Origin: Acidobacteriota bacterium
Lineage (GTDB): Bacteria; Acidobacteriota; Vicinamibacteria; Vicinamibacterales; CAVVIG01
Direction: 5' to 3'
Assembly (NCBI GenBank): GCA_023265105.1
Contig: JAHFUJ010000005.1
Span: 1-47,264 of the forward strand
Length of the DNA stretch: 47,264 bases
Position numbers and translations under genes: made by a program. This document shows positions 5,583-46,617 of this stretch, in pieces. The notes under the pieces were generated by a model that searched no databases, was not told the origin of the DNA, and saw only the letters and a program-made list of their open reading frames with translations. The stretch's first letter is position 1, and every line of letters begins with the position of its first letter.

Positions 5583-7862
5583 ATGGCCCGTACAGAAGGT
5601 TTCCATCCGGAGGACAATAGTGGGGCTCGGCATGCGGCTTGCCCATGCCGGGCCGATAATAGTACGGATCTGACGACTGACGTGCGAAAACCGACGATTC
5701 TCGTAACTGCCATTACATTTTTAGCGCTCTCTTGGCCGGCGTGGGCCGCCGAACGTGTAGCCGCGGCCGGCGACGCCTTCATCGCCCGCGACGACGCCGC
5801 ACGCACGTGGACCATCGCCAATCGCCAGATCAGCGCGACATTCGAAATCGATCGCAGTCACGAAACGCGGTTGATCCATCTGACGAACCCGGCTACCGGT
5901 CACCATTGGGAGGCGACAGGCGGGTCCGACGCGGTGGCCAATATCGCCGGGCACAATAGTCAACTCGGTGCTCCCGGTGCCGGCTACCAACTGCTCGACG
6001 TGAGCGGCACGAGCACCGACAACGCGGTTCATCTTACCCTCGCCTTCGATCATCGCGACACGCATCTGCGTGTCACGCGTCATTACGTGGTGTATGCCGA
6101 CGTGCCGGCGATCGAAGCGTGGACGCGGTTCGAGGCAACTCAGACGGCCGGTGACGTCGAGGTCTCGAACTTGAACGTCTGGGACTTCACGGTTGTTGGA
6201 CAGCAGATCGAATGGATCAACGGGCTGCTCGGCGACGGCTTGGGCGTGGTCCAGAACGACGCGTTCTCGCTGCAGCAGCGGACGCTGGCACCCGGCGAGG
6301 GGCTCGATCTGGGCAGCGAGACGCGATCGTCGGACCGCGTGGTGCCGTATTTCAAGATCGTCGACCGCGGCGAGGCGATTGTCGGCGGTTTGCTCTGGTC
6401 GGGCGCGTGGCACCTGGGCCTGGCAGGCTATTCCAATGGGACCGCCTTTAAGTTCGGCCTGGCGCCGATGACGACCCTCGTCACGGCATCGCACCCCGTC
6501 GAGGGGCCGCACGGATTCCTGGCCGTCGCGAGCCGCGCCGAAGACGGCTCTAGCGCCGTTGGCGCGTACGTGCAGAAAGGGCTGCGTGGCGGCCGAGGAT
6601 TCGACGCGCTCGTGACCTACAACACGTGGTTCGCGTACGGCACGCGGGTCGACGAGTTGACGGTGATGAACGAGATGCAGCGCGTCTCGGAGCTCGGCAC
6701 CGAGCTCTTTGTGCTGGACGCCGGCTGGTACGCCGGGGCCGGGCTCGACGGGACGTGGGACTTCACGAACGGGGTGGGAAACTGGTACTCCGATCCGGCC
6801 CGCTTTCCGTCAGACCTCCACGCCCTGACCGACTATGCGCACAGCCTCGGCATGAAATTCGGGTTGTGGATCGAACCGGAACGCATCGCGCTCGAAAACC
6901 TGAAGGGCGACAATCCCGCCGAGGAGTCGTGGCTGGCGAACGCCGACGGGCGCTACGATCCGAACGCGCCAGCGAGCGGCGCGACCACGGCGCAGTTGTG
7001 CCTGGCCAGCGACAGGGCCCGCGCGTGGATCATCGGCGAGATCGTGCATCTGATCGACCGGGTGCAGCCGGACTACATCAAATGGGACAACAATTTCTGG
7101 ATCAACTGCGACCGGTCGGGCCACGGGCACGGCGCCTCGGACGGCAACTTCGCGCACGTGACGGGACTCTATCAGATGCTGTCCGCGTTGCGCGAGCGCT
7201 ATCCAAACCTTCTCATCGAGAACGTCGCGGGCGGCGGCAACCGGCTGGACTACGGCATGTTGCGCTACACCGATGCGGCGTGGATGGACGATCGCACCGC
7301 GCCGTCGATGCACGTCCGACACAACTTCCAAGGGCTCAGCACCGCGTTTCCTCCGTCGTATCTTCTCTCGTTCCTGATCGACTACGACACGGAGTCGCTC
7401 TACAACGGCACCGACCTTCCTCTGTATATCCGCAGCCGCATGCTCGGCGTGCTCGGCCTCACATTCAAGACCGTCGATCTGAGGCCATCGGCCGCCGCTG
7501 ACATTGCCAACCACGTCAGTCTTTACAAGGCGCTGCGCGACACGATCAAGGAGGGCAGCGCGATACTGCTGACTCGCCAGGCCTCGGTCGGCGACCCCCC
7601 GGCGTGGGGCGCCGTGCAGGAAACCGACGCCGCGGGACGCACGCTTCTCTTTGCGTTCCAGAACGATCGTGCCGAGGAGCGTATCGTCCTGAAGCCGCGT
7701 AACCTCATACCCGGCACGATGTACGACGTGCAGTCGGTCGACGTCGGTCCCCTCGGCATCGCCTCGGGTGCCGATCTGATGGCGGACGGTATCGAAGTCA
7801 ACGCGTCGCCCAAATCCGCGGCGCACGTGCTCGTCCTCACCGAGATCCACTCGTCTCCGTAA
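5583..7862 (+). CDS. Glycoside hydrolase family 36 alpha-galactosidase-like enzyme
   Basis: GH36 motifs ELFVLDAGW, DYIKWDNNF, IENVAGGGNRLDYG and AAWMDDRT are present. Start is uncertain: ATG 5583 has a GGAAGGGG RBS, while in-frame GTG 5682 would give signal peptide RKPTILVTAITFLALSWPAWA. Confidence 0.85.
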   Translation: MARTEGFHPEDNSGARHAACPCRADNSTDLTTDVRKPTILVTAITFLALSWPAWAAERVAAAGDAFIARDDAARTWTIANRQISATFEIDRSHETRLIHLTNPATGHHWEATGGSDAVANIAGHNSQLGAPGAGYQLLDVSGTSTDNAVHLTLAFDHRDTHLRVTRHYVVYADVPAIEAWTRFEATQTAGDVEVSNLNVWDFTVVGQQIEWINGLLGDGLGVVQNDAFSLQQRTLAPGEGLDLGSETRSSDRVVPYFKIVDRGEAIVGGLLWSGAWHLGLAGYSNGTAFKFGLAPMTTLVTASHPVEGPHGFLAVASRAEDGSSAVGAYVQKGLRGGRGFDALVTYNTWFAYGTRVDELTVMNEMQRVSELGTELFVLDAGWYAGAGLDGTWDFTNGVGNWYSDPARFPSDLHALTDYAHSLGMKFGLWIEPERIALENLKGDNPAEESWLANADGRYDPNAPASGATTAQLCLASDRARAWIIGEIVHLIDRVQPDYIKWDNNFWINCDRSGHGHGASDGNFAHVTGLYQMLSALRERYPNLLIENVAGGGNRLDYGMLRYTDAAWMDDRTAPSMHVRHNFQGLSTAFPPSYLLSFLIDYDTESLYNGTDLPLYIRSRMLGVLGLTFKTVDLRPSAAADIANHVSLYKALRDTIKEGSAILLTRQASVGDPPAWGAVQETDAAGRTLLFAFQNDRAEERIVLKPRNLIPGTMYDVQSVDVGPLGIASGADLMADGIEVNASPKSAAHVLVLTEIHSSP

Positions 7863-28796: not shown

Positions 28797-29501
28797 ATGC
28801 GTCGATGGCCATTGTCCTTGAGCGCGATCGTGCTCGTCACCGGGTTCGTCGCGACTCCGGTTGCCTCCGCTCAGCAATCACTCAACTTGTACGTCGGCGG
28901 CTTCGCGCCGCGCAGCGAAGATGCGAGGATCGGCGACGACGTGCTCGTGCAGAATCGCGATTTCCTCGTCTTCAACATCAACGACTTCAACGGCGGCACC
29001 GTGGGCGGCGAATGGCTGATTGCGCTCGGCGACAAGTTCGACGCCGGCCTGGGGCTCGGCTTCTACCAGCGCACGGTGCCGACCGTCTACACAAACTTCG
29101 TCAACAACGACGGGAGCGAGATTCAAGCCGATTTGAAGCTGAGGATCGTGCCGTTCACCGCGACCGTGCGCTTCCTGCCGTTTGGGCACCGCTCGGCGAT
29201 TCAGCCGTATATCGGTGCCGGCGCCGGCGCCTTCCGGTGGCGCTACAGCGAGACGGGGCAGTTCGTCGACTTCACGGACCCGAAGCGCACGATCTTTCGC
29301 GGGAACTTCGTGGGCAGCGGCAGCGCGGCCGGTCCGGTCGTTCTCGGCGGCGTGAGGGTGCCGATTGGATCGACCGCGATTGGCGGGGAGATTCGGTATC
29401 AGTCGGCCGAGGCCAATCTGCCGGCCGATCTAGGATTCGCGGGGTCGAAGATCGATCTTGGCGGGTTCGCCTATCTGCTGACGTTCAATATTCGATTCTG
29501 A
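28797..29501 (+). CDS. Outer-membrane beta-barrel protein (OmpW/porin-like)
   Basis: Signal peptide MRRWPLSLSAIVLVTGFVATPVASA, alternating beta-strand pattern, and C-terminal YLLTFNIRF ending in Phe (OMP beta-signal). Confidence 0.8.
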   Translation: MRRWPLSLSAIVLVTGFVATPVASAQQSLNLYVGGFAPRSEDARIGDDVLVQNRDFLVFNINDFNGGTVGGEWLIALGDKFDAGLGLGFYQRTVPTVYTNFVNNDGSEIQADLKLRIVPFTATVRFLPFGHRSAIQPYIGAGAGAFRWRYSETGQFVDFTDPKRTIFRGNFVGSGSAAGPVVLGGVRVPIGSTAIGGEIRYQSAEANLPADLGFAGSKIDLGGFAYLLTFNIRF

Positions 29502-31078
29502 CGCTGATAGAGCGCGAGCCCCGCACCCTCGCACACGCGCACGTACCCGTCGAGAAAATGCGGGCGCGCGCGCGCGATTCTCGCCAGCATGTCGCCGCCT
29601 TCCGCCTTCTCCTCGATCAGTACCCACCCGGCGTACGGCCGCGGGCCGTTCAGGGCCGCGAGCCAGATGTCGCCGTTGCCTTCGTGCAGAAAATCGGCGA
29701 TGTCGAACCCCTCACGCGACGCCTCCTGCATGTAATGACCGAGCGAACCCATGCTCGCCATGATCGTGTCGCCGTCGTAGCGCGCCCGCAGGTAGTCGGT
29801 CACCTGTGTGCGTACCGGGACGTTCGGCCCATCCCATTGCGCTTCGACCACCATCGGCGCGGTCCGGTCGAGCGGGTGTAGTTCGTACGCGATGATCAGC
29901 GCGACCGCCACCGCTGCGATGAAGCGGGCGCCCCTGAAGAAGTTCACCAAACCAACCGCCACGCCCACGCCGACCGCCTCGATCGCGATGAGCGGCACCA
30001 GGTAGCGGATGCGGAAGGGATGACCGTCCACGAATGCCAACCAGGGAACGACGGCGGTCGCCACGAGCGACAGTACGATAAAGGCGTCCGCCCGCCGACG
30101 GCTAAACACGCCCGTGGCGAGAAGCACCGCGACACCGGCCGCGGCGATCGCGATGATCACGGTTCCGCTCAACTGGTCGGCGCCCCACCAGACTTCGGCC
30201 GCCGCGAGCAGTGGTTGGCCGAGCGACTTGTTTTCGGGCACGAAGAACCCGGTCTCGACAAACCACTGGCCGATCACGACGCGGCTGAAGATCGCGAACG
30301 CGACGATGGTGACAGCGGGGTAGCAGGCGATCGCCGCGACGCGTCGTGACGCGGCCATCAAGGAATCGCCGCGCCGCCACTGAGTCCACACGGCCGCCGC
30401 CAGCGCGCAGACCGTGACGGGCCACGCCTCGTAGCGCGTCAGACACGCGAGCGCGAATGTCCACCCAACAGTGCTCGTAGCGTAGGGCCTCAGCCCTGCC
30501 GTACTCGTGGCGGGGGACTTTAGTCGTGCCGTACTCGTGGTGGGGGACTTTAGTCCTGCCGTACTCGTGGCGCAGGACTTTAGCCCTGCGTCAGCGTCGA
30601 CCCACCTCATCAATAGCGCGACGGCGAGCGTCGTCAGTGCCAGCAGCAGCGGCTCGGTCATCGGCGTCGCCTGCAAATACACGACGTTGGGATTGAGCGC
30701 AAACACTGCGGCAGCCACAAGCGCGGCGCCGGCCGACTGCGTGTGTTGCAGCACCATCCAGGCGAGTGCGCCCGTGGCGATCGCGAAGGCGACGATCGAG
30801 ATCGCGACCGCCGAGGCGCCCGTTCGGTAGAAGGCGTCGATCTGGACGGGCACCGCGTTCAGCAGATGCGGCAGCGGCAGCCACACGGCGCCGACTTGCT
30901 GCCACCCCGGGGTGATGCTGTCGACGATGCGGCGCGCGACGACGAGGTGACCGCGCGCGTCGTAGTGGCTGATCGTGAGCCCGAGACGATGGTAGTGGAG
31001 CGCCGCGATCGCGCCGCCGATGGCGGCGGCGATCGCCGTGGCGAAAGGAAGCGCCCGCTGCCGCAACGGTATAATCAC
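29471..31078 (-). CDS. Polytopic membrane protein, GT-C-fold glycosyltransferase-like, with 40-aa repeat-encoded insertion
   Basis: GTG start. TM1 is followed by the loop SHYDARGHLVVARRI, then more than 10 TM segments and a soluble C-terminal domain. The segment AGLKSCATSTAGLKSPTTSTARLKSPATSTAGLRPYATST is encoded by the 4x30-nt array. Confidence 0.8.
   Translation of the reverse strand: MIIPLRQRALPFATAIAAAIGGAIAALHYHRLGLTISHYDARGHLVVARRIVDSITPGWQQVGAVWLPLPHLLNAVPVQIDAFYRTGASAVAISIVAFAIATGALAWMVLQHTQSAGAALVAAAVFALNPNVVYLQATPMTEPLLLALTTLAVALLMRWVDADAGLKSCATSTAGLKSPTTSTARLKSPATSTAGLRPYATSTVGWTFALACLTRYEAWPVTVCALAAAVWTQWRRGDSLMAASRRVAAIACYPAVTIVAFAIFSRVVIGQWFVETGFFVPENKSLGQPLLAAAEVWWGADQLSGTVIIAIAAAGVAVLLATGVFSRRRADAFIVLSLVATAVVPWLAFVDGHPFRIRYLVPLIAIEAVGVGVAVGLVNFFRGARFIAAVAVALIIAYELHPLDRTAPMVVEAQWDGPNVPVRTQVTDYLRARYDGDTIMASMGSLGHYMQEASREGFDIADFLHEGNGDIWLAALNGPRPYAGWVLIEEKAEGGDMLARIARARPHFLDGYVRVCEGAGLALYQRQNRILNVSR
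30471..30590. repeat. Four exact-period 30-nt tandem units GTACTCGTGGCGNN-GGACTTTAGTCC-TGCC inside CDS
   Basis: Units lie at 30471, 30501, 30531 and 30561. Each contains a small GGAC-TTTA-GTCC type hairpin. The same unit family occurs at 46501-46590. Confidence 0.9.
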
Positions 31079-31083
31079 CTGTT
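30973..31083. repeat. Left copy of 111-bp direct repeat (functional 5' end of GT-C gene)
   Basis: tcgtgagcccgagacgatggtagtggagcgccgcgatcgc...ggtataatcacctgtt. It is identical to 32641-32751 except for 2 adjacent-region mismatches (ctgccgc vs ctctcgc). Confidence 0.95.
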
Positions 31084-31098
31084 AGACCTTGGCGTCAG

Positions 31099-31124
31099 AA
31101 AAGGCCCGGTTTTCCGGGCCTTTT
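31099..31124. terminator. Bidirectional intrinsic terminator AAAAGGCCCGG-TTTT-CCGGGCCTTTT
   Basis: A 7-bp GC stem (31103-31109 / 31114-31120) with a TTTT loop is flanked by A4 and T4. Confidence 0.65.
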
Positions 31125-31329
31125 GCTTCAGGCCCGACGAAAACGCTAACGGTTCGCTAACGCGAGGAAGGGAAGGGGGGTCCTGATGGTCCACTTCAAG
31201 CTCTCTGACGACGATCCGGTGAAGCACAAGAGGCAGAGTATCTTGCATTCCTAGGCGTTCGGTCCTTCAGACATAGTCCCGGAGGACGCGTTCAAATCAC
31301 AGTGCAATCATCAAAGTTGGAGAAGCACG

Positions 31330-31796
31330 ATGGCTCGAAGGAGTAAAAAGAACTCGGGTCTGAATGGTCCGTACGTGTGTTACGCCGCATTCTGCGAAAA
31401 GGTGCTGCAAGAGAAAGATGGTGTCTTCAGCTTGATCCGTATTGTCGATCGAATAACGGTGACGCCACCGCCAAGCGTCACATTCGAGCAAGCAAGTTTA
31501 CCAGCTCTCGCCCTGACGCTTGCGATCGGGTTGAATCTGGGGACGCAAGAGGAACGCACCAGCTAAGCATCCGCGGTCGTTCTCCCGCCGGCGGCGAGGG
31601 CGAGGTGAACATGAACCGGTCCGCGCTCTTCGAAGGCGATGACCGGGGGGTTGGCCTGTTTGCCACGGTCAGCTTGCAGCTGAAGGAGGACGGACTCCAC
31701 TGGTTTGATGTGTTATTCGAAGGCCAGCGGCTTACGAGCGTTCCGCTTAGGGTGCTTGTACAGCAAACGCAACTTGGGACGTCAACTGCGGGTTGA
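31330..31796 (+). pseudogene. Frameshifted small beta-rich protein gene (two overlapping frames 31330-31566 and ~31545-31796)
   Basis: Frame 1 ends ...LALTLAIGLNLGTQEERTS*. The adjacent frame continues GTHQLSIRGRSPAGGEGEV...GLFATVSLQLKEDGLHWFDVLFEGQRLTSVPLRV. Together they read as one coherent ~150-aa protein if 1 nt is added or removed near 31545-31560. Confidence 0.5.
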
Positions 31797-32097
31797 TCGT
31801 CGTCGTGGAGCTCCCAAGCTGCACGACGCTGACTCCCGGCTGGGCGTTCATGGTGACACGGTACGTGCTGACGAGTGGGCGCAGAAGGTGGCGCAACTCG
31901 CCTTCGGTCCAGTCGCCGTTCGAGAACTCAGCCACGCGCAAGGCCACCTCGTACGCGAGTTCCTCCAGCGTCTGCCGGCCCTGAACCTGGCCTAATCGAG
32001 CCGCGAACCACTGGACGGACTCATCGATCGCGAGCGAGCCAGAGACAAGTCGACCCAATTGCCGTCGCAGCGCGATTTCAAGGGAGGTTTTCGACAT
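31747..32097 (-). CDS. Hypothetical 116-aa protein
   Basis: MSKTSLEIALRRQLGRLVSGSLAIDESVQWFAARLG... A GGAGAG-like RBS lies upstream, composition is normal, and no family was recognised. Confidence 0.45.
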   Translation of the reverse strand: MSKTSLEIALRRQLGRLVSGSLAIDESVQWFAARLGQVQGRQTLEELAYEVALRVAEFSNGDWTEGELRHLLRPLVSTYRVTMNAQPGVSVVQLGSSTTTINPQLTSQVAFAVQAP

Positions 32098-32098
32098 T

Positions 32099-32398
32099 GT
32101 GGCGACCGTGAAAATTGTCTCTCCTAAGGATATACGAAAACTCTTCAGCGAGAACGGGTATGCCGAACGACTGGCAAATGGGGAACTTCGGTCTGTGTTG
32201 AAAAAGAACACGCACCCAACATCGCCTAAAGCACCTGTTCCGTTTTGCACTCGGAGTCAATTGGGCGTCTATTTGGACGGCAAGAAGGCCGTGGCGATCG
32301 TTCACCAATACCTGAAGCCTGACGGCAAACTCGGCGCGAGCGGAAAGCCCGATCCGAAGTGGCTGATCCACGCTGGAACCATTTACCAAGCGCTTTGA
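32099..32398 (+). CDS. Hypothetical 99-aa protein
   Basis: GTG start. ...SQLGVYLDGKKAVAIVHQYLKPDGKLGASGKPDPKWLIHAGTIY looks protein-like. The start lies 1 nt from the divergent 32097 start, so one of the two calls may be wrong. Confidence 0.4.
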   Translation: MATVKIVSPKDIRKLFSENGYAERLANGELRSVLKKNTHPTSPKAPVPFCTRSQLGVYLDGKKAVAIVHQYLKPDGKLGASGKPDPKWLIHAGTIYQAL

Positions 32399-32640
32399 AC
32401 CGCGGCAAGCAACCGCTCGACGGTCAGCCGCGGCTCGGGCAGTTCGCGGTCTGACGGAGCAGACAGCCGGCTCCCGACCCATACGCGGCCAGTCTCGGCG
32501 CCTGGACGCTTTCTGCTGGCGGACAGGAGAAAACGCCCGACGTCGTCGCGCCGGACCTGCGCCAGCCCCACCGCGTTGTCCACGTCGGTTTCCGCCGGGG
32601 TAAAGGCAATCTGCAATCGGCGTATCGCCTTCCGCAACAT
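32383..32640 (-). CDS. Hypothetical 85-aa ORF abutting the right direct repeat
   Basis: MLRKAIRRLQIAFTPAETDVDNAVGLAQVRRDDVGRFLL... No recognisable family. The ATG lies 1 nt inside the insertion boundary. Confidence 0.25.
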   Translation of the reverse strand: MLRKAIRRLQIAFTPAETDVDNAVGLAQVRRDDVGRFLLSASRKRPGAETGRVWVGSRLSAPSDRELPEPRLTVERLLAAVQSAW

Positions 32641-32751
32641 TCGTGAGCCCGAGACGATGGTAGTGGAGCGCCGCGATCGCGCCGCCGATGGCGGCGGCGA
32701 TCGCCGTGGCGAAAGGAAGCGCCCGCTCTCGCAACGGTATAATCACCTGTT
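32641..32751. repeat. Right copy of 111-bp direct repeat (orphan 5' remnant encoding MIIPLRERALPFATAIAAAIGGAIAALHYHRLGL)
   Basis: See 30973-31083. Downstream of the repeat the reading frame degenerates into Arg/Ala-rich nonsense (track ORF 32078..32746). Confidence 0.95.
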
Positions 32752-32757
32752 TATTCT

Positions 32758-33357
32758 ATGGGCAGATTCGTCGACCGGGTTCAAACGCTCGCCCTCGCGC
32801 TCGGTGCCCCCGGACTCTTCCTCGTCACGTTCCTGGATTCTTCATTTTTCTCGCTGCCCGAAGTGGCCGATCTCCTGGTCATGTGGATGGTGATGCGGCA
32901 CAAGGCGCGGATGGTGCTCTACGTCGTCAGCGCGACACTCGGGTCAATCGTCGGCTGCCTCTTGCTGTATTTCCTCGGCCGTAAGGGGGGCGAGGCGCTC
33001 GTCCGCCGGCGCTTCAATTCGGCGAGCGTCGATAAAGCGATGGCCACGTTCCGGCGGTACGGGATCATGGCGGTCCTGATTCCCTCCATCCTCCCGCCGC
33101 CCACTCCCTTCAAGATTTTCGTGATCCTCGCCGGTCTCGCCGGCATCAACGCCACGCGCTTCACGACGGCGATTGTCGTCGGTCGCGGCACCCGCTACCT
33201 GGTCGAAGGGTTGCTCGCCGCCTGGTACGGCGATCGCGCGATGGCGTTCATGCGCACGCACGGCACGACGGTGTCGCTCGTGGTGGTCGGGCTGCTCACC
33301 CTGGGCTTGGCCGGCTACGTCCTGTCGGGCAAAGCGCGGACGGGAAAGGGCCGATAA
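32758..33357 (+). CDS. DedA/YqaA-family (VTT domain) membrane protein
   Basis: FLVTFLDSSFFSLPEVADLLVMWMV, YFLGRKGGEALV and AVLIPSILPPPTPFKIFVILAG are typical of DedA/YqaA. Confidence 0.85.
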   Translation: MGRFVDRVQTLALALGAPGLFLVTFLDSSFFSLPEVADLLVMWMVMRHKARMVLYVVSATLGSIVGCLLLYFLGRKGGEALVRRRFNSASVDKAMATFRRYGIMAVLIPSILPPPTPFKIFVILAGLAGINATRFTTAIVVGRGTRYLVEGLLAAWYGDRAMAFMRTHGTTVSLVVVGLLTLGLAGYVLSGKARTGKGR

Positions 33358-33505: not shown

Positions 33506-34483
33506 ATGAACCCAGAACTCACGATTGTCATTCCGATCCGCAACGAGGCGCCCGCGCTGCAGGAGCTCCATCGGGAACTGACCGCGACGCTTGCGGCGTG
33601 GGGACGGTTGTACGAGATCATCATCGTCGACGATGGGAGTACCGACGAGAGCTTCGACATCCTCACGCGGCTGCAGGCGGCCGATCCGCGACTGCGGGTC
33701 ATCCGCTTCCGCCGCAACTTCGGACAGACCGCGGCGTTCGCCGCCGGCTTCGATCACGCGCGCGGCCGGCTGATCGTCACCTCTGATGGCGACCTCCAGA
33801 ACGATCCGCGCGACATCCCCGCGATGGTCGACGCCCTCGAGCGCGGCGCCGACATCGTGTGCGGCTGGCGGAAGGATCGGAAGGACACGTGGCTGTCGCG
33901 ACGACTGCCGTCGACAATCGCCAACCGGCTGATCTCGGTGGCCACCGGCGTTCGCCTGCACGATTACGGCTGCTCGCTGAAAGTGTTTCGCGCCGACGTC
34001 GTCAAGCCGCTGAAGCTCTACGGCGAGATGCATCGGTTCCTGCCGGCGATTGCGAGCGAGCAGGGCGTCGCCATCGCGGAGGTCGTCGTCAATCACCGCC
34101 CGCGCCGGCACGGCCGATCGAAATACGGCATCGGGCGGACGGTGCGCGTCCTGCTCGATTTGCTGACGGTCAAGTTCCTGCTGAGCTACTCGACGCGGCC
34201 GCTGCAGATCTTCGGCCTGATTGGCTCGGCGATGGGGCTGCTTGGGACCGGGATTACCGGATGGCTCGCGTACGTGCGGTTGACGGGGCAGGAATCGATC
34301 GCCAACCGGCCGCTGCTGCTGTTTGGCATCCTGCTGGTGTTCACCGGCGTCCAACTGGTGACGCTGGGCCTGCTGGCGGAGCTCATCGCGCGCACGTACC
34401 ACGAATCGCAGGACAAGCCCACGTACGTGATTCGCGAAATCCTGCAGGCGCCGGCGCCGGAACGCGCCGTGGCTGGCCGATAG
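33506..34483 (+). CDS. GT2 polyprenyl-phosphate glycosyltransferase (GtrB/ArnC/DPM1-like)
   Basis: IVIPIRNE, IIIVDDGSTDES, FRRNFGQTAA and TSDGDLQNDP are present, plus two C-terminal TM helices (LQIFGLIGSAMGLLG, LLLFGILLVFTGVQLVTLGLLAE). Confidence 0.9.
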   Translation: MNPELTIVIPIRNEAPALQELHRELTATLAAWGRLYEIIIVDDGSTDESFDILTRLQAADPRLRVIRFRRNFGQTAAFAAGFDHARGRLIVTSDGDLQNDPRDIPAMVDALERGADIVCGWRKDRKDTWLSRRLPSTIANRLISVATGVRLHDYGCSLKVFRADVVKPLKLYGEMHRFLPAIASEQGVAIAEVVVNHRPRRHGRSKYGIGRTVRVLLDLLTVKFLLSYSTRPLQIFGLIGSAMGLLGTGITGWLAYVRLTGQESIANRPLLLFGILLVFTGVQLVTLGLLAELIARTYHESQDKPTYVIREILQAPAPERAVAGR

Positions 34484-45436: not shown

Positions 45437-46617
45437 CGCGTCAGCACCGTGCGCTTCAGTAAATTCCAGTAGCCATCCAGCAGCCGCTCGTAGAGCGCCC
45501 GTCCGTGGCGGACGATGAAGGTGGAGGCCAGGTCGCCGCGGACGACCAAGGGCCCGCTGATGAGCAGATCGCGATCCGGTCTGCGCCGGATCCGCCGGGC
45601 CAGCGCGCGATCGCGCGGCAGCGCGGGCAGCATCGTGATGAGGCCGGCAACGGCTCGGAGGTACGTCAGACCGTGGCCTTTCGCGACCAGCACCAACAGC
45701 TGCAGCGGCTCGTGAACGAGCAGCGGCGGAATGAGCCATACGATCGTCCGTGCCTCGTAATTCTTCAAGATGAAGTGCCAGCGGTTGCGAATCTGATAGT
45801 AGAAGAGCCACGCGCCGCGCGGACGGCTGAGGTGCAGCACGAGCGAGTGCGGCAGCTCCATGATCGTGTAGCCCGCCATCTTGATCCGGTGCGCGAAGTC
45901 GCCGTCTTCCTTGCCGATGAAATACCGCTCGTCGAACAGACCGACGTCGATGGCCGCCTGCCGGTCGAGAAGCAACGCGCAGGTCGGCGCGGCGCCGATG
46001 TCCTGCGGAGTATGACCTCGATCGACCAGCGGTCGATCGAGCCACGGGTTGATCGCTTCGCAGATGTAATGCAACGCGCCGCCCGCGTACTGAATCACTT
46101 CCGGGCGGTCCGCGTGCACGACGATCGGGCTGCCGACCTTGATGGACGGATCGGCGAGCATCGCAGCGTGCAGGAGTTGAACAGTGTCTGGTTTGATGCG
46201 GACGTCGGCATCCATGAGTAGCACAAAGCGGCTCGTCGCTTCCGTGATCCCGACGTTTCGTCCTGGACTCGGGCCGTCGTTGCGGTCGAGACGACGAACG
46301 CGGACGGCCGGCCATTCGCGTGCGAGCCACTCGCGCGTGCCGTCGGTGCTCGCCACGTCGACCACGGTGATGCGGTCCGCTGGACAACCCGCGGCCGTCA
46401 GCGACTGCAGCGTTGCCGGCAGCGCACCGAGATTGTTGTGAGCGACGATGGCGACCTGGATATCGGCAGGGAAGTCACTGCAGCCTGTTTCGCGATCTGC
46501 AGTGGCGCAGGCCTTCAGGCCCGCGAACGCAGGCTCGTGGCGCGGGACTTTAGTCCTGCCGTTCTCGTGGCGCAGGACTTCGGTCTTGTCCTCCTCGTGT
46601 CGACGCTCGCCAGTCAT
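45433..46617 (-). CDS. GT2-family glycosyltransferase with repeat-encoded N-terminal extension
   Basis: VAIVAHNN, VVDVASTDGT, LLMDADV and FIGKEDGDFAHR are present. The N-terminal ~40 aa (MTGERRHEEDKTEVLRHENGRTKVPRHEPAFAGLKACAT) derive from the 30-nt repeats. ATG 46617 overlaps the upstream stop. Confidence 0.85.
   Translation of the reverse strand: MTGERRHEEDKTEVLRHENGRTKVPRHEPAFAGLKACATADRETGCSDFPADIQVAIVAHNNLGALPATLQSLTAAGCPADRITVVDVASTDGTREWLAREWPAVRVRRLDRNDGPSPGRNVGITEATSRFVLLMDADVRIKPDTVQLLHAAMLADPSIKVGSPIVVHADRPEVIQYAGGALHYICEAINPWLDRPLVDRGHTPQDIGAAPTCALLLDRQAAIDVGLFDERYFIGKEDGDFAHRIKMAGYTIMELPHSLVLHLSRPRGAWLFYYQIRNRWHFILKNYEARTIVWLIPPLLVHEPLQLLVLVAKGHGLTYLRAVAGLITMLPALPRDRALARRIRRRPDRDLLISGPLVVRGDLASTFIVRHGRALYERLLDGYWNLLKRTVLTR
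46501..46590. repeat. Three 30-nt units of the GTNCTCGTGGCGCA-GGACTTTAGTCC-TGCC family
   Basis: Units start at 46501 (degenerate), 46531 and 46561. Same family as 30471-30590. Confidence 0.85.

Follow-up and report, generated by a model that had tools for sequence, protein, structure and literature searches.

The 1557 bp (31084-32640) that lie between two 111-bp direct repeats, next to a GT-C-fold glycosyltransferase gene and the divergent dedA gene, are, judging by the related loci, a derived insertion into an otherwise empty site. The inserted DNA is read as foreign and horizontally acquired, because its composition and codon usage differ from those of the host and its gene module spans several phyla. 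According to our best explanation, to which we give a probability of about one half, the segment is an acquired and decaying islet in an 11-bp divergent promoter spacer, and the repeats are attL/attR-type recombination junctions. The window, i.e. the whole stretch of DNA analysed, is 47,264 nucleotides long; its features are listed in Table 1.

Table 1. Coordinates of the features discussed in the text; positions refer to the window.
Feature	Position	Strand	Remarks
GT-C-fold membrane glycosyltransferase gene	29471..31078	-	intact, 535 aa
Left repeat copy	30973..31083		GT-C codons 1-35 and 1 nt, plus 5 nt upstream of the start
Bidirectional intrinsic-terminator hairpin	31099..31124		11-bp stem, A-run before, T-run after
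Heptamer motif CGTTAGC-N4-CGTTAGC	31145..31162	-	two direct heptamers one helical turn apart
DUF6941 gene	31330..31796	+	inactivated by a frameshift near 31525-31550
o116	31747..32097	-	conserved 116-aa gene, no match in family searches
o99	32099..32398	+	conserved 99-aa gene
GC-rich tail of the insert	32399..32640		68% GC, host-like
Right (orphan) repeat copy	32641..32751		keeps the ancestral dedA junction and the dedA -10 box TATAAT (32738-32743)
GT-C -10-like box TAGAAT	32753..32758	-	-12 to -7 of the start, overlaps the dedA ATG
dedA, DedA/VTT-domain membrane protein gene	32758..33357	+	PF09335, E 1e-12
ArnC-like GT2 polyprenyl-phosphate glycosyltransferase gene	33506..34483	+	PF00535, E 5e-34

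The repeats are identical at 109 of their 111 positions (98%), and only these two copies occur within the window. The mismatches are adjacent (GC at 31060-61, CT at 32728-29) and correspond to a change from Q7 to E7. The left copy supplies the GTG start (31076-31078) and the first 35 codons of the intact ORF. The right copy reads MIIPLRERALPF...HRLGLT and is out of frame thereafter, and this orphan reading frame lies 11 bp from the dedA ATG; its junction, CAT-AGAATAAACAG-GTGATTATACC, and the 11-bp spacing are the same as in 30 relatives. Both edges of the repeat are sharp, and one of them is located 5 nt upstream of the start codon, within sequence conserved across related species. Coordinates and alignment therefore agree with the sequence-only reading, which had taken the left copy for the real gene start and the right one for an orphan abutting dedA.

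An empty site, which that reading had suggested looking for in related genomes, is found in 30 of the 80 Vicinamibacterales species loci, where GT-C and dedA are separated by an 11-bp gap of conserved sequence. The gap is also 11 bp in the closest relative found (P0025, 80% amino acid identity), and the sites of the nearest neighbours by GT-C identity are empty. Among conspecific contigs, all eight that could be read carry the insertion (one NCBI MAG contig and seven from ENA/Logan, obtained from several samples). They have the same arrangement at 99.5-100% identity, and three of them span both repeats. The empty allele is seen in none of the four conspecific contigs with an identical DedA, and no excised-circle junction is present among the contigs retrieved. 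As far as assembled contigs show, the insertion is fixed in one Vicinamibacterales species. The host is a soil or groundwater Acidobacterium.

The insert had been described as AT-richer than its surroundings, and its GC content is indeed 58.8%, whereas the window averages 65.1% (sd 2.1); no other 1557-bp stretch of the entire sequence has a lower value. The GC3 of the cargo genes is 0.58-0.74 vs 0.78-0.86 for the host genes, i.e. the codon usage, the other check suggested at that time, marks the insert as foreign and not native. An intrinsic terminator and a frameshifted gene had also been recognised in it, and both are present. The frameshifted gene, DUF6941, reads as a 78-aa ORF and a C-terminal part in a different frame, and the same 78+61-aa gene calls recur in the conspecific contigs that cover the gene. 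Its C-terminal half matches Pfam PF22091 with an E-value of 3.5e-4 and 21.4 bits, below the curated cut-off of 27 because the gene is frameshifted. It aligns over its full length with intact homologues, for which the PF22091 match is unmarked (L097 and one other contig) or weak (L098 and L101).

With its 3' end o116 extends into DUF6941, and a distance of 1 nt separates its start from that of o99. Compared with the variant L095, o116 has 95% nucleotide identity and six amino acid changes, and its homologues adjoin o99 in L085, L086, L091, L097 and L101. The o99 protein is characterised by the motif HPSxPKAxVPxCTRSQ...VAIVHQYLxPDGxLGASGKPDPK; we found 23 homologues and 1,103 clusters at 50% identity, and the family has no Pfam model. 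Its AF2 model has a pLDDT of 84, and no PDB fold match was found for it. In the other loci examined, o99 always adjoins DUF6941. Among the two to three small ORFs reported initially, o116 and o99 are real conserved genes, whereas the third, an 85-aa ORF at 32383-32640 on the minus strand, is not conserved in frame and is probably not a gene. The tail is 88% identical to that of L095; the differences include indels of 1 bp and 3 bp and numerous non-synonymous changes, and the L095 counterpart forms an in-frame fusion with the orphan N-terminus of GT-C. No homologues of the tail were seen among the fetched related loci, and it has no family matches.

The DUF6941/o116/o99 module is found in Acidobacteriota, Chloroflexota, Ktedonobacteraceae and deltaproteobacterial contigs, and directly adjoins a tRNA gene in two contexts. 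There it comes without integrases, and in 12 other loci it has no flanking repeats. No close copy of the element was detected in the other GTDB species representatives, where the best o99 match has 61% amino acid identity, and an exact 28-mer from the right end of the insert has no match in JGI metagenomes. L095 is 92% identical to the element and has exactly the same right junction; the divergence between the two repeats of one genome is 1.8%, compared with this 92% identity.

The GT-C protein has more than 4,300 homologues. The GT-C fold combines an N-terminal multi-helix membrane module with a C-terminal soluble domain, and by fold search the protein belongs to it. Its AF2 model has a pTM of 0.77, and the top 18 Foldseek matches in the PDB are all GT-C enzymes, including DPY19, STT3, AftA/B, ArnT, PMT and ALG9/12, at E-values of 1e-5 to 0.4 and TM-scores of about 0.4-0.5. 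However, neither the protein nor a profile of 26 sequences matches Pfam, NCBIfam or PDB sequences, so that membership of a curated GT-C sequence family (PMT, PMT_2, ArnT etc.) is not supported and the original GT-C call holds by fold and not by sequence family. Among the 120 GT-C homologues listed, one carries PF02366. A GT-C role is plausible because the ArnC-like GT2 (NF007986, E 8.5e-65, below the curated cut-off) is a functional partner. DedA is weakly similar to the undecaprenyl-phosphate transporter UptA (NF052605 and NF052604, E 1e-5, far below the curated cut-offs).

The two genes have their -10 boxes back to back. The dedA box is formed by GT-C codons 2-3 on the opposite strand and is conserved in 28 of the 30 relatives. 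Since the 111-bp repeat contains this box, the orphan copy keeps it in place, and dedA should retain its promoter inside the first GT-C codons. A second copy of the box, in the left repeat (31070-31075), points into the insert. The GT-C box is TAGAAT in 24 of the 30 empty-site relatives and TAnnnT in 29. In the window TAGAAT precedes the orphan copy only; the intact copy has AAGGTC at the same position. The terminator hairpin, AAAAGGCCCGG-TTTT-CCGGGCCTTTT, has a folding energy of about -26 kcal/mol (z -2.8 to -3.9), and 16-17 nt separate it from the CAGGTGATT core, which lies at the GT-C start. The sequence-only reading had the insertion restore the gene. This is correct for the coding sequence, which is intact, but expression is probably reduced or rewired, and probably not restored, because the insert separates the gene from its conserved -10 box and places a bidirectional terminator in front of it. 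Transcription from the native GT-C promoter is now predicted to enter the orphan ORF and to follow the minus strand of the insert in the direction of o116.

Insertions of kilobase size occur at the GT-C/dedA site in at least seven of the 80 related species. Two of them resemble the insert of the window: the insert of L033 measures 2.3 kb and has a 21/22-bp repeat, that of L053 measures 4.3 kb, and its repeat about 20 bp. Both carry cargo unrelated to that of the window, and their nearest relatives have empty sites. All three share the CAGGTGATT core and a near-identical terminal hairpin at 16-17 nt from it. This hairpin type was found only three times in about 1 Mb of related loci, always at one and the same end of an insertion flanked by repeats; the search pattern was derived from these three cases, and genome-wide and metagenome-wide scans added no further case. 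In L030, L034 and L071 the insertions lack repeats, and a remnant of the GT-C start is left beside dedA. The heptamer motif has one exact match in the window and one in 1.15 Mb of related loci; the latter lies within an unrelated insertion that L006 carries at this site.

The shared core, short repeats and hairpin hint at a cassette family. In its full form, which we consider doubtful, this proposal says that the inserts of the window, L033 and L053 would belong to a family of small cassettes that have no recombinase and combine variable cargo with a conserved hairpin end and 16-17 nt. A recombinase acting in trans would direct them to the CAGGTGATT core in Vicinamibacterales, within the divergent GT-C/dedA promoter, which is conserved and leaderless. 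Duplication of the core would keep the dedA promoter, and the CGTTAGC repeats near the ends would be candidate protein-binding sites of the arm type. As had been noted from the start, the insert encodes no integrase or transposase: no recombinase was detected among the ORFs scanned in it (Pfam, PHROGs, NCBIfam, PADLOC) or among 20 further window genes scanned, nor was one found in the other insertions examined at this site. A DDE or other transposon with a target-site duplication was also considered and rejected, as there is no transposase, terminal inverted repeats are not among the inverted repeats listed, and the duplication, for which a short, fixed length is expected, measures 111 bp in the window but 20-22 bp in L033 and L053.

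For the origin of the repeats, we favour a reciprocal crossover. One partner would be the chromosomal 5' end of GT-C and the other a copy of the same 5' end on circular incoming DNA, and the two 111-bp repeats would be the resulting junctions, in an attL/attR-type layout. RecA may have made the crossover, using the 111 bp of homology, or a site-specific recombinase may have acted in trans. Such an attL/attR-type origin is plausible. The geometry of the repeats fits it, with sharp edges, one of them within conserved sequence close to the start codon, and 98% identity, and so do the insertions of L033 and L053 at the same core and the right junction shared with L095. Against it stand the missing recombinase, the repeat-free module elsewhere, the lack of a close copy in the searches described above, and the identity of 98% itself, for which either a near-conspecific donor or later gene conversion would be needed. 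Of the integrative element proposed by the sequence-only reading, the foreign insertion, the empty site and the kept ORF stand, but the attL/attR nature of the repeats is unproven, as neither a circle, an empty conspecific allele nor a recombinase was found. A less probable alternative, though one that deserves weight, is a single illegitimate insertion, in which DNA of foreign origin was picked up when a staggered break was repaired or when replication switched templates, 111 bp of target were duplicated, and the product survived since the dedA promoter stays attached. The missing recombinase in all the scans above would fit this, as would the repeat-free cargo module elsewhere and the repeat-less insertions with a GT-C start remnant. 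The site would also tolerate only promoter-preserving insertions, because both -10 boxes lie inside the start of the neighbouring gene. However, random repair predicts no shared core, short repeats and hairpin at 16-17 nt in three independent insertions, and 111-bp target duplications are not known as a regular product of bacterial repair.

It is very improbable that the occupied site is ancestral and that the relatives came to the 11-bp state later, through precise deletion between the repeats on repeated occasions. Such recombination would recreate the exact empty site, and several lineages do have something between GT-C and dedA, but the spacer is identical in 30 species, every occupied lineage has empty nearest relatives, the cargo is unrelated among the inserts, and the codon usage of the window insert is foreign. 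An assembly artefact, raised earlier as an alternative, can practically be dismissed. The window does come from a MAG-type assembly, and several short contigs end within the repeats, as a repeat-induced chimera would have it; however, three independent assemblies (NCBI MAG JAHFUN010000008.1, ENA ERZ27280021 and ERZ27276474) cover the insert completely, together with its two repeats, at 99.7-99.8% identity, and Logan unitigs are 100% identical over each junction, so that the arrangement is real.

Under the favoured crossover reading, the islet would now be a remnant, either immobile or mobilised in trans only, because one of its cargo genes is broken and it encodes no recombinase. It has the look of an integrated islet left stranded without a recombinase, which is an object of a rather ordinary kind, and related species show repeated insertions at its site. 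If the repeats are true att junctions, it offers a clean case of gene gain at a shared divergent promoter in Acidobacteriota, a dominant but little-studied soil phylum, in which the duplicated gene start acts as the promoter of the neighbour and not as coding sequence. If it goes back to a single repair accident, the insertion is only a local curiosity. The analysis also flags the GT-C/dedA spacer as a recurrent insertion hotspot and DUF6941, the 116-aa protein and the 99-aa protein family as a widespread uncharacterised three-gene module, and predicts that the insertion silences or rewires a conserved GT-C glycosyltransferase.

Several known elements are comparable. SXT/R391 integrates in the 5' end of prfC. 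In icd, a 163-bp pseudo-icd duplicate is what the insertion of e14 leaves behind, and the 5' end of ttcA is the integration site of Rac (PMC6379469). As in these three, the islet has a long direct repeat of a target gene end, with the ORF kept by one copy, an orphan fragment at the opposite end and empty relatives. Unlike them, it has no integrase or excisionase and is only 1.56 kb long, it gives the 5'-truncated gene no recognisable new promoter but a terminator in front, and it targets a divergent promoter whose two -10 boxes stand back to back. CIMEs derive from ICEs or IMEs and are still flanked by att sites, but no longer have the genes for integration and transfer (PMC5704250). The islet resembles them in its att-like flanking repeats, its decaying cargo and its lack of recombination and transfer genes. 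It differs in that no parental ICE/IME or cognate integrase was identified in the relatives' insertions examined or the window genes scanned, in that it shows no tandem accretion with a functional element, and in its host, an uncultured Acidobacteriota lineage with no known conjugative partner. In Prochlorococcus, degenerate tycheposon remnants and cargo islands are found beside tRNA genes (bioRxiv 10.1101/2020.12.28.424599). The islet differs from these in that no integrase-bearing family member was found and its target is the start and promoter of a protein gene instead of a tRNA gene, but it shares with them a recurrent hotspot with unrelated cargo and partial copies of the attachment sequence that flank integrase-less fragments.

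The two direct repeats described by the sequence-only reading are real: both copies are 111 nt long, they agree at 109 of 111 positions, and the window contains no third copy. The mismatches are two adjacent positions, GC at 31060-61 and CT at 32728-29. As had been claimed, the left copy supplies the true start and first 35 codons of the GT-C gene, while the right copy is an orphan remnant abutting the divergent dedA gene; the coordinates are collected in the table. The 1557 bp between the repeats, said to be AT-richer, have 58.8% GC (window mean 65.1%, sd 2.1) and form the lowest-GC stretch of that length in the whole 47 kb. A codon usage comparison, which had been suggested, gives a GC3 of 0.58-0.74 for the cargo ORFs against 0.78-0.86 for the host genes. 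The last 240 bp of the insert (32399-32640) are 68% GC, like the host. The intrinsic terminator and the frameshifted gene, here a DUF6941 gene, were also found.

An assembly artefact, raised earlier as a possible explanation, is ruled out by independent contigs carrying the same arrangement at 99.5-100% identity: JAHFUN010000008.1, a MAG contig at NCBI, and seven ENA/Logan contigs that were readable and came from other samples. Three contigs span both repeats. We regard as solid that the segment is an insertion, that it is foreign and that a duplication flanks it.

Coordinates of the repeats, the insert and related features in the window and in related loci (L-numbers)
Feature	Locus	Position (strand)	Remarks
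Left repeat copy	window	30973-31083	start codon GTG (31076-78), codons 1-35 (ORF 29471-31078(-), 535 aa)
Right repeat copy	window	32641-32751	orphan start MIIPLRERALPF...HRLGLT, then out of frame; 11 bp from dedA ATG at 32758
Perfect hairpin	window	31099-31124	11-bp stem; A-run and T-run on its flanks
Near-identical bidirectional terminator hairpin, AAAAGGCCCG...CGGGCCTTTT	window; L033; L053	31099-31124; 5880-5904; 5932-5957	
CGTTAGC-N4-CGTTAGC	window; L006	31145-31162; 2987-3004	
DUF6941 gene	window	frameshift near 31525-31550	identical split gene calls in conspecific contigs covering the gene
o116	window	31747-32097 (-)	
o99	window	32099-32398 (+)	
GC-rich tail	window	32399-32640	last segment of insert
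Hotspot insertions, 1.4-4.3 kb	L006; L030; L033; L034	2953-5967; 4298-5967; 3651-5952; 4223-5976	
Hotspot insertions, 1.4-4.3 kb	L053; L068; L071	1708-5976; 3489-5994; 4556-5982	
Cargo module next to tRNA	L085; L098	5060-5134; 5998-6083	L098 place also as L099, L100
REP-like GAAGSCGGACACTACGTACTGA	window	16507, 16573, 28596, 33448, 41231, 41272, 41303, 41424	

The insertion lies in the core chromosome of a member of the Vicinamibacterales (Acidobacteriota), among genes for DnaJ, TerC, RecA, thiolase, CcmF, EPSP synthase and inositol monophosphatase, and there is no tRNA near the GT-C/dedA site. An Rfam search gave sub-threshold matches only, driven by the terminator. The GT-C assignment of the gene beside the insert stands by fold and context, and not by sequence family: the 535-aa protein has no match in Pfam, NCBIfam or the PDB sequences, a 26-sequence profile included. 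Its AlphaFold model (pTM 0.77) has only GT-C glycosyltransferases among its top matches in a PDB fold search (DPY19, STT3, AftA/B, AglB, ArnT, PMT, ALG9/12), and the neighbours, a DedA protein with weak UptA similarity and an ArnC-like GT2, fit a polyprenyl-phosphate-sugar pathway. Inside the gene a 30-bp tandem repeat (3.9 copies, 30474-30589) encodes an (A/T)GLKSxxTST-like loop of low model confidence (residues about 170-196) whose length varies among homologues; a related sequence is found at 46534-46599 in another glycosyltransferase gene. The window also holds eight copies of a REP-like 22-nt element (0 expected by chance), mostly just 3' of genes, the IMPase and dedA genes included.

The gene order IMPase - outer-membrane protein - GT-C - dedA - GT2 is kept across 80 species-level relatives. 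Thirty of them have a spacer of exactly 11 bp between the GT-C and dedA start codons and read CAT-AGAATAAACAG-GTGATTATACC there, and the same gap is seen in P0025 (ENA ERZ27297570), the closest relative found (80% aa identity in GT-C). The empty site that the sequence-only reading proposed to look for is thus present in 30 species and in P0025. As the right repeat together with dedA is an exact copy of this ancestral junction, and the sites of P0025 and of the nearest neighbours by GT-C identity are empty, the insertion is derived. Among four contigs of the species with identical DedA there was no empty allele.

At the empty site, 24 of the 30 relatives have TAGAAT (29 have TAnnnT) at -12 to -7 relative to the GT-C start, overlapping the dedA ATG (window 32738-32760; L005-L064 near the GT-C start). 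In 28 of the 30, GT-C codons 2-3 are ATTATA, which spells TATAAT when read on the strand of dedA. ATT and ATA are rare codons, and the TATAAT-forming codons are kept despite a genome-wide GC3 above 0.8. We infer two back-to-back -10 boxes, each within or touching the start of the other gene, which suggests that the divergent transcription is leaderless or near-leaderless.

Because the orphan copy retains the TATAAT of dedA with about 100 bp of the sequence 5' of it, the insertion is expected to leave dedA expression unchanged. In the left copy the TATAAT (31070-75) is directed into the insert, with the terminator about 25 nt on, and the native TAGAAT (32758-53) would now drive the orphan ORF, reading the minus strand towards o116. 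The earlier statement that the element restores the gene holds for the GT-C coding sequence and probably not for its transcription, because AAGGTC stands in place of TAGAAT, the T-run of the terminator ends about 15 nt 5' of the intact start codon, and no room for a promoter was found between the two.

From left to right on the plus strand of the window, the insert consists of the terminator, the CGTTAGC motif, DUF6941, o116, o99 and the tail. Two or three small ORFs had been noted. Judged by their conservation in L095, a 92%-identical variant, o116 and o99 are real genes (o116 differs by 17 nucleotides and 6 amino acids). The start codons of this pair (32095-32101) are divergent and 1 nt apart, overlapping by 7 nt in L097, which is the same layout as in the host GT-C/dedA pair. 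The third, an 85-aa ORF (32383-32640, minus strand), is rejected as a gene and as a piece of a recombinase: no family matches it, and in comparison with L095 a 1-bp indel breaks its frame and non-synonymous changes predominate. The idea that the tail derives from an earlier, decayed copy of the GT-C 5' region is also rejected, as its sole tblastx match is out-of-frame, arginine-rich and of low complexity. L095 (1-919, SRR14366766) corresponds to window 31741-32663 and has an identical right junction. Here a 1-bp deletion joins the tail in frame with the orphan GT-C N-terminus, giving a chimeric ORF of >110 aa in which the GT-C part is one transmembrane helix. Sample ERZ27297570 contains both the 92% variant, on a 953-bp contig, and P0025, on a 4865-bp contig with an empty site.

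DUF6941, o116 and o99 recur with their gene order unchanged in Acidobacteriota, Chloroflexota, Ktedonobacteraceae and deltaproteobacterial contigs. The o99 family comprises 1,103 clusters at 50% identity and has a strongly conserved motif; it has no Pfam model, and its structure model has no PDB fold match. The cargo proteins had no match in PHROGs, NCBIfam, PADLOC or, beyond DUF6941, Pfam, and a literature search found no paper mentioning DUF6941. Elsewhere the module is a small islet amid housekeeping genes, directly 3' of a tRNA gene in two contexts (tRNA-His in L085, tRNA-Leu in L098). tRNA genes are classic sites for island integration. There was no integrase in the loci examined; in L101 one gene adjoining the module gives faint transposase-domain matches. 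Flanking repeats are not a general trait of the module, being absent from 12 other loci, and a 9-mer, ATCGCTAAC, on both sides of it in L098 is within chance expectation.

Kilobase-scale insertions with unrelated cargo occupy the GT-C/dedA site in at least 7 of the 80 relatives. They carry two-component systems, a Crp-family regulator and an ECF sigma factor; among these are a response regulator fused to a thioredoxin-reductase-like domain with a cNMP-binding histidine kinase, and a response regulator with a Crp-family regulator. A remnant of the GT-C start stays beside dedA in L021, L030, L034 and L071. In L021 the spacer (5636-5985) is enlarged by about 350 bp with ~32-64-bp tandem or dispersed repeats (GTGAGCTTGTCGAACCGATGGACCCGCTCATG...), and resembles an expansion of the MITE or REP type, not gene cargo.

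L033 (2.3-kb insert, repeat 21/22 bp) and L053 (4.3-kb insert, repeat about 20 bp) have flanking repeats that include CAGGTGATT, the core at the GT-C start. Both share their GT-C-side end with the window's insert: AAAAG(G/C)CCCG...CGGGCCTTTT, 16-17 nt, then CAGGTGATT. This hairpin type was found in those three places only in about 1 Mb of related loci, with a search pattern derived from the same three cases. The closest relatives of L033 (85-88% aa) have empty sites. The window's insert and the unrelated insert of L006 at the same site each have one exact copy of the CGTTAGC pair, a possible protein-binding site, with no other copy in 1.15 Mb. In L098 (6089-6122), an inverted pair, GCTAACGGCG...CGCCGTTAGC, separates tRNA-Leu from the DUF6941 module. 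A GTCTC(G/A)TG(T/C)(C/G)GTG-like motif at the dedA-proximal ends of L006 (2969), L033 (3682) and L053 (1752) is absent from the window's insert.

The 111-bp repeats would have arisen by att-type, reciprocal recombination if the insert is an integrative element, a reading that we consider plausible but unproven, with a probability of about 0.5. It is favoured by the sharp repeat edges, one of them within the conserved core, by independent hits on the same core elsewhere, as in L033 and L053, and by the recurrence of the hairpin end and the CGTTAGC motif in other insertions at the site. There are also precedents: e14 in icd carries a substitute gene end with a 163-bp duplicate, Rac/ttcA does so at a 5' end (PMC6379469), and CIMEs are att-flanked remnants without an integrase (PMC5704250).

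A serious rival is a one-off illegitimate capture that duplicated 111 bp of the target; such an event would persist by preserving the dedA promoter. It counts against the att-type origin that no recombinase, circle junction, empty allele or close copy was found. As stated earlier, no integrase or transposase remains in the insert, nor was one found among 20 further window genes; no locus scanned gave a recombinase for the insert, and the scanned ORFs of the other hotspot insertions included none. In L015 and L029, two larger loci with rearrangements, a search for integrases found no recombinase; they carry an nSTAND NTPase and a FadL-like outer-membrane protein. The junction ...GCCTTCCGCAACAT-[111 bp]-AGACCTTGGCGTCAG... 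of an excised circle was not seen in the contigs retrieved. The search for other copies of the 1.56-kb segment gave no close one: protein-based scans found none in other GTDB species or in IMG/VR, and a 28-mer from the right end had 0 exact matches in JGI metagenomes. It also counts against the att-type origin that the hairpin pattern derives from the three cases it finds, and that wider scans gave no further hairpin-core cases: a strict GTDB scan returned L033 and L053 only, a relaxed one 27 matches, about the chance expectation, with 0 adjoining GT-C or dedA, and a relaxed JGI scan two chance matches.

The recurrent hotspot, the common hairpin end and the uncharacterised cargo module add to the interest of the locus. 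According to this comparison, the window's insert is a variant of the same kind as the known att-flanked, recombinase-less island remnants, and differs from them in its unusual target, a shared divergent promoter.
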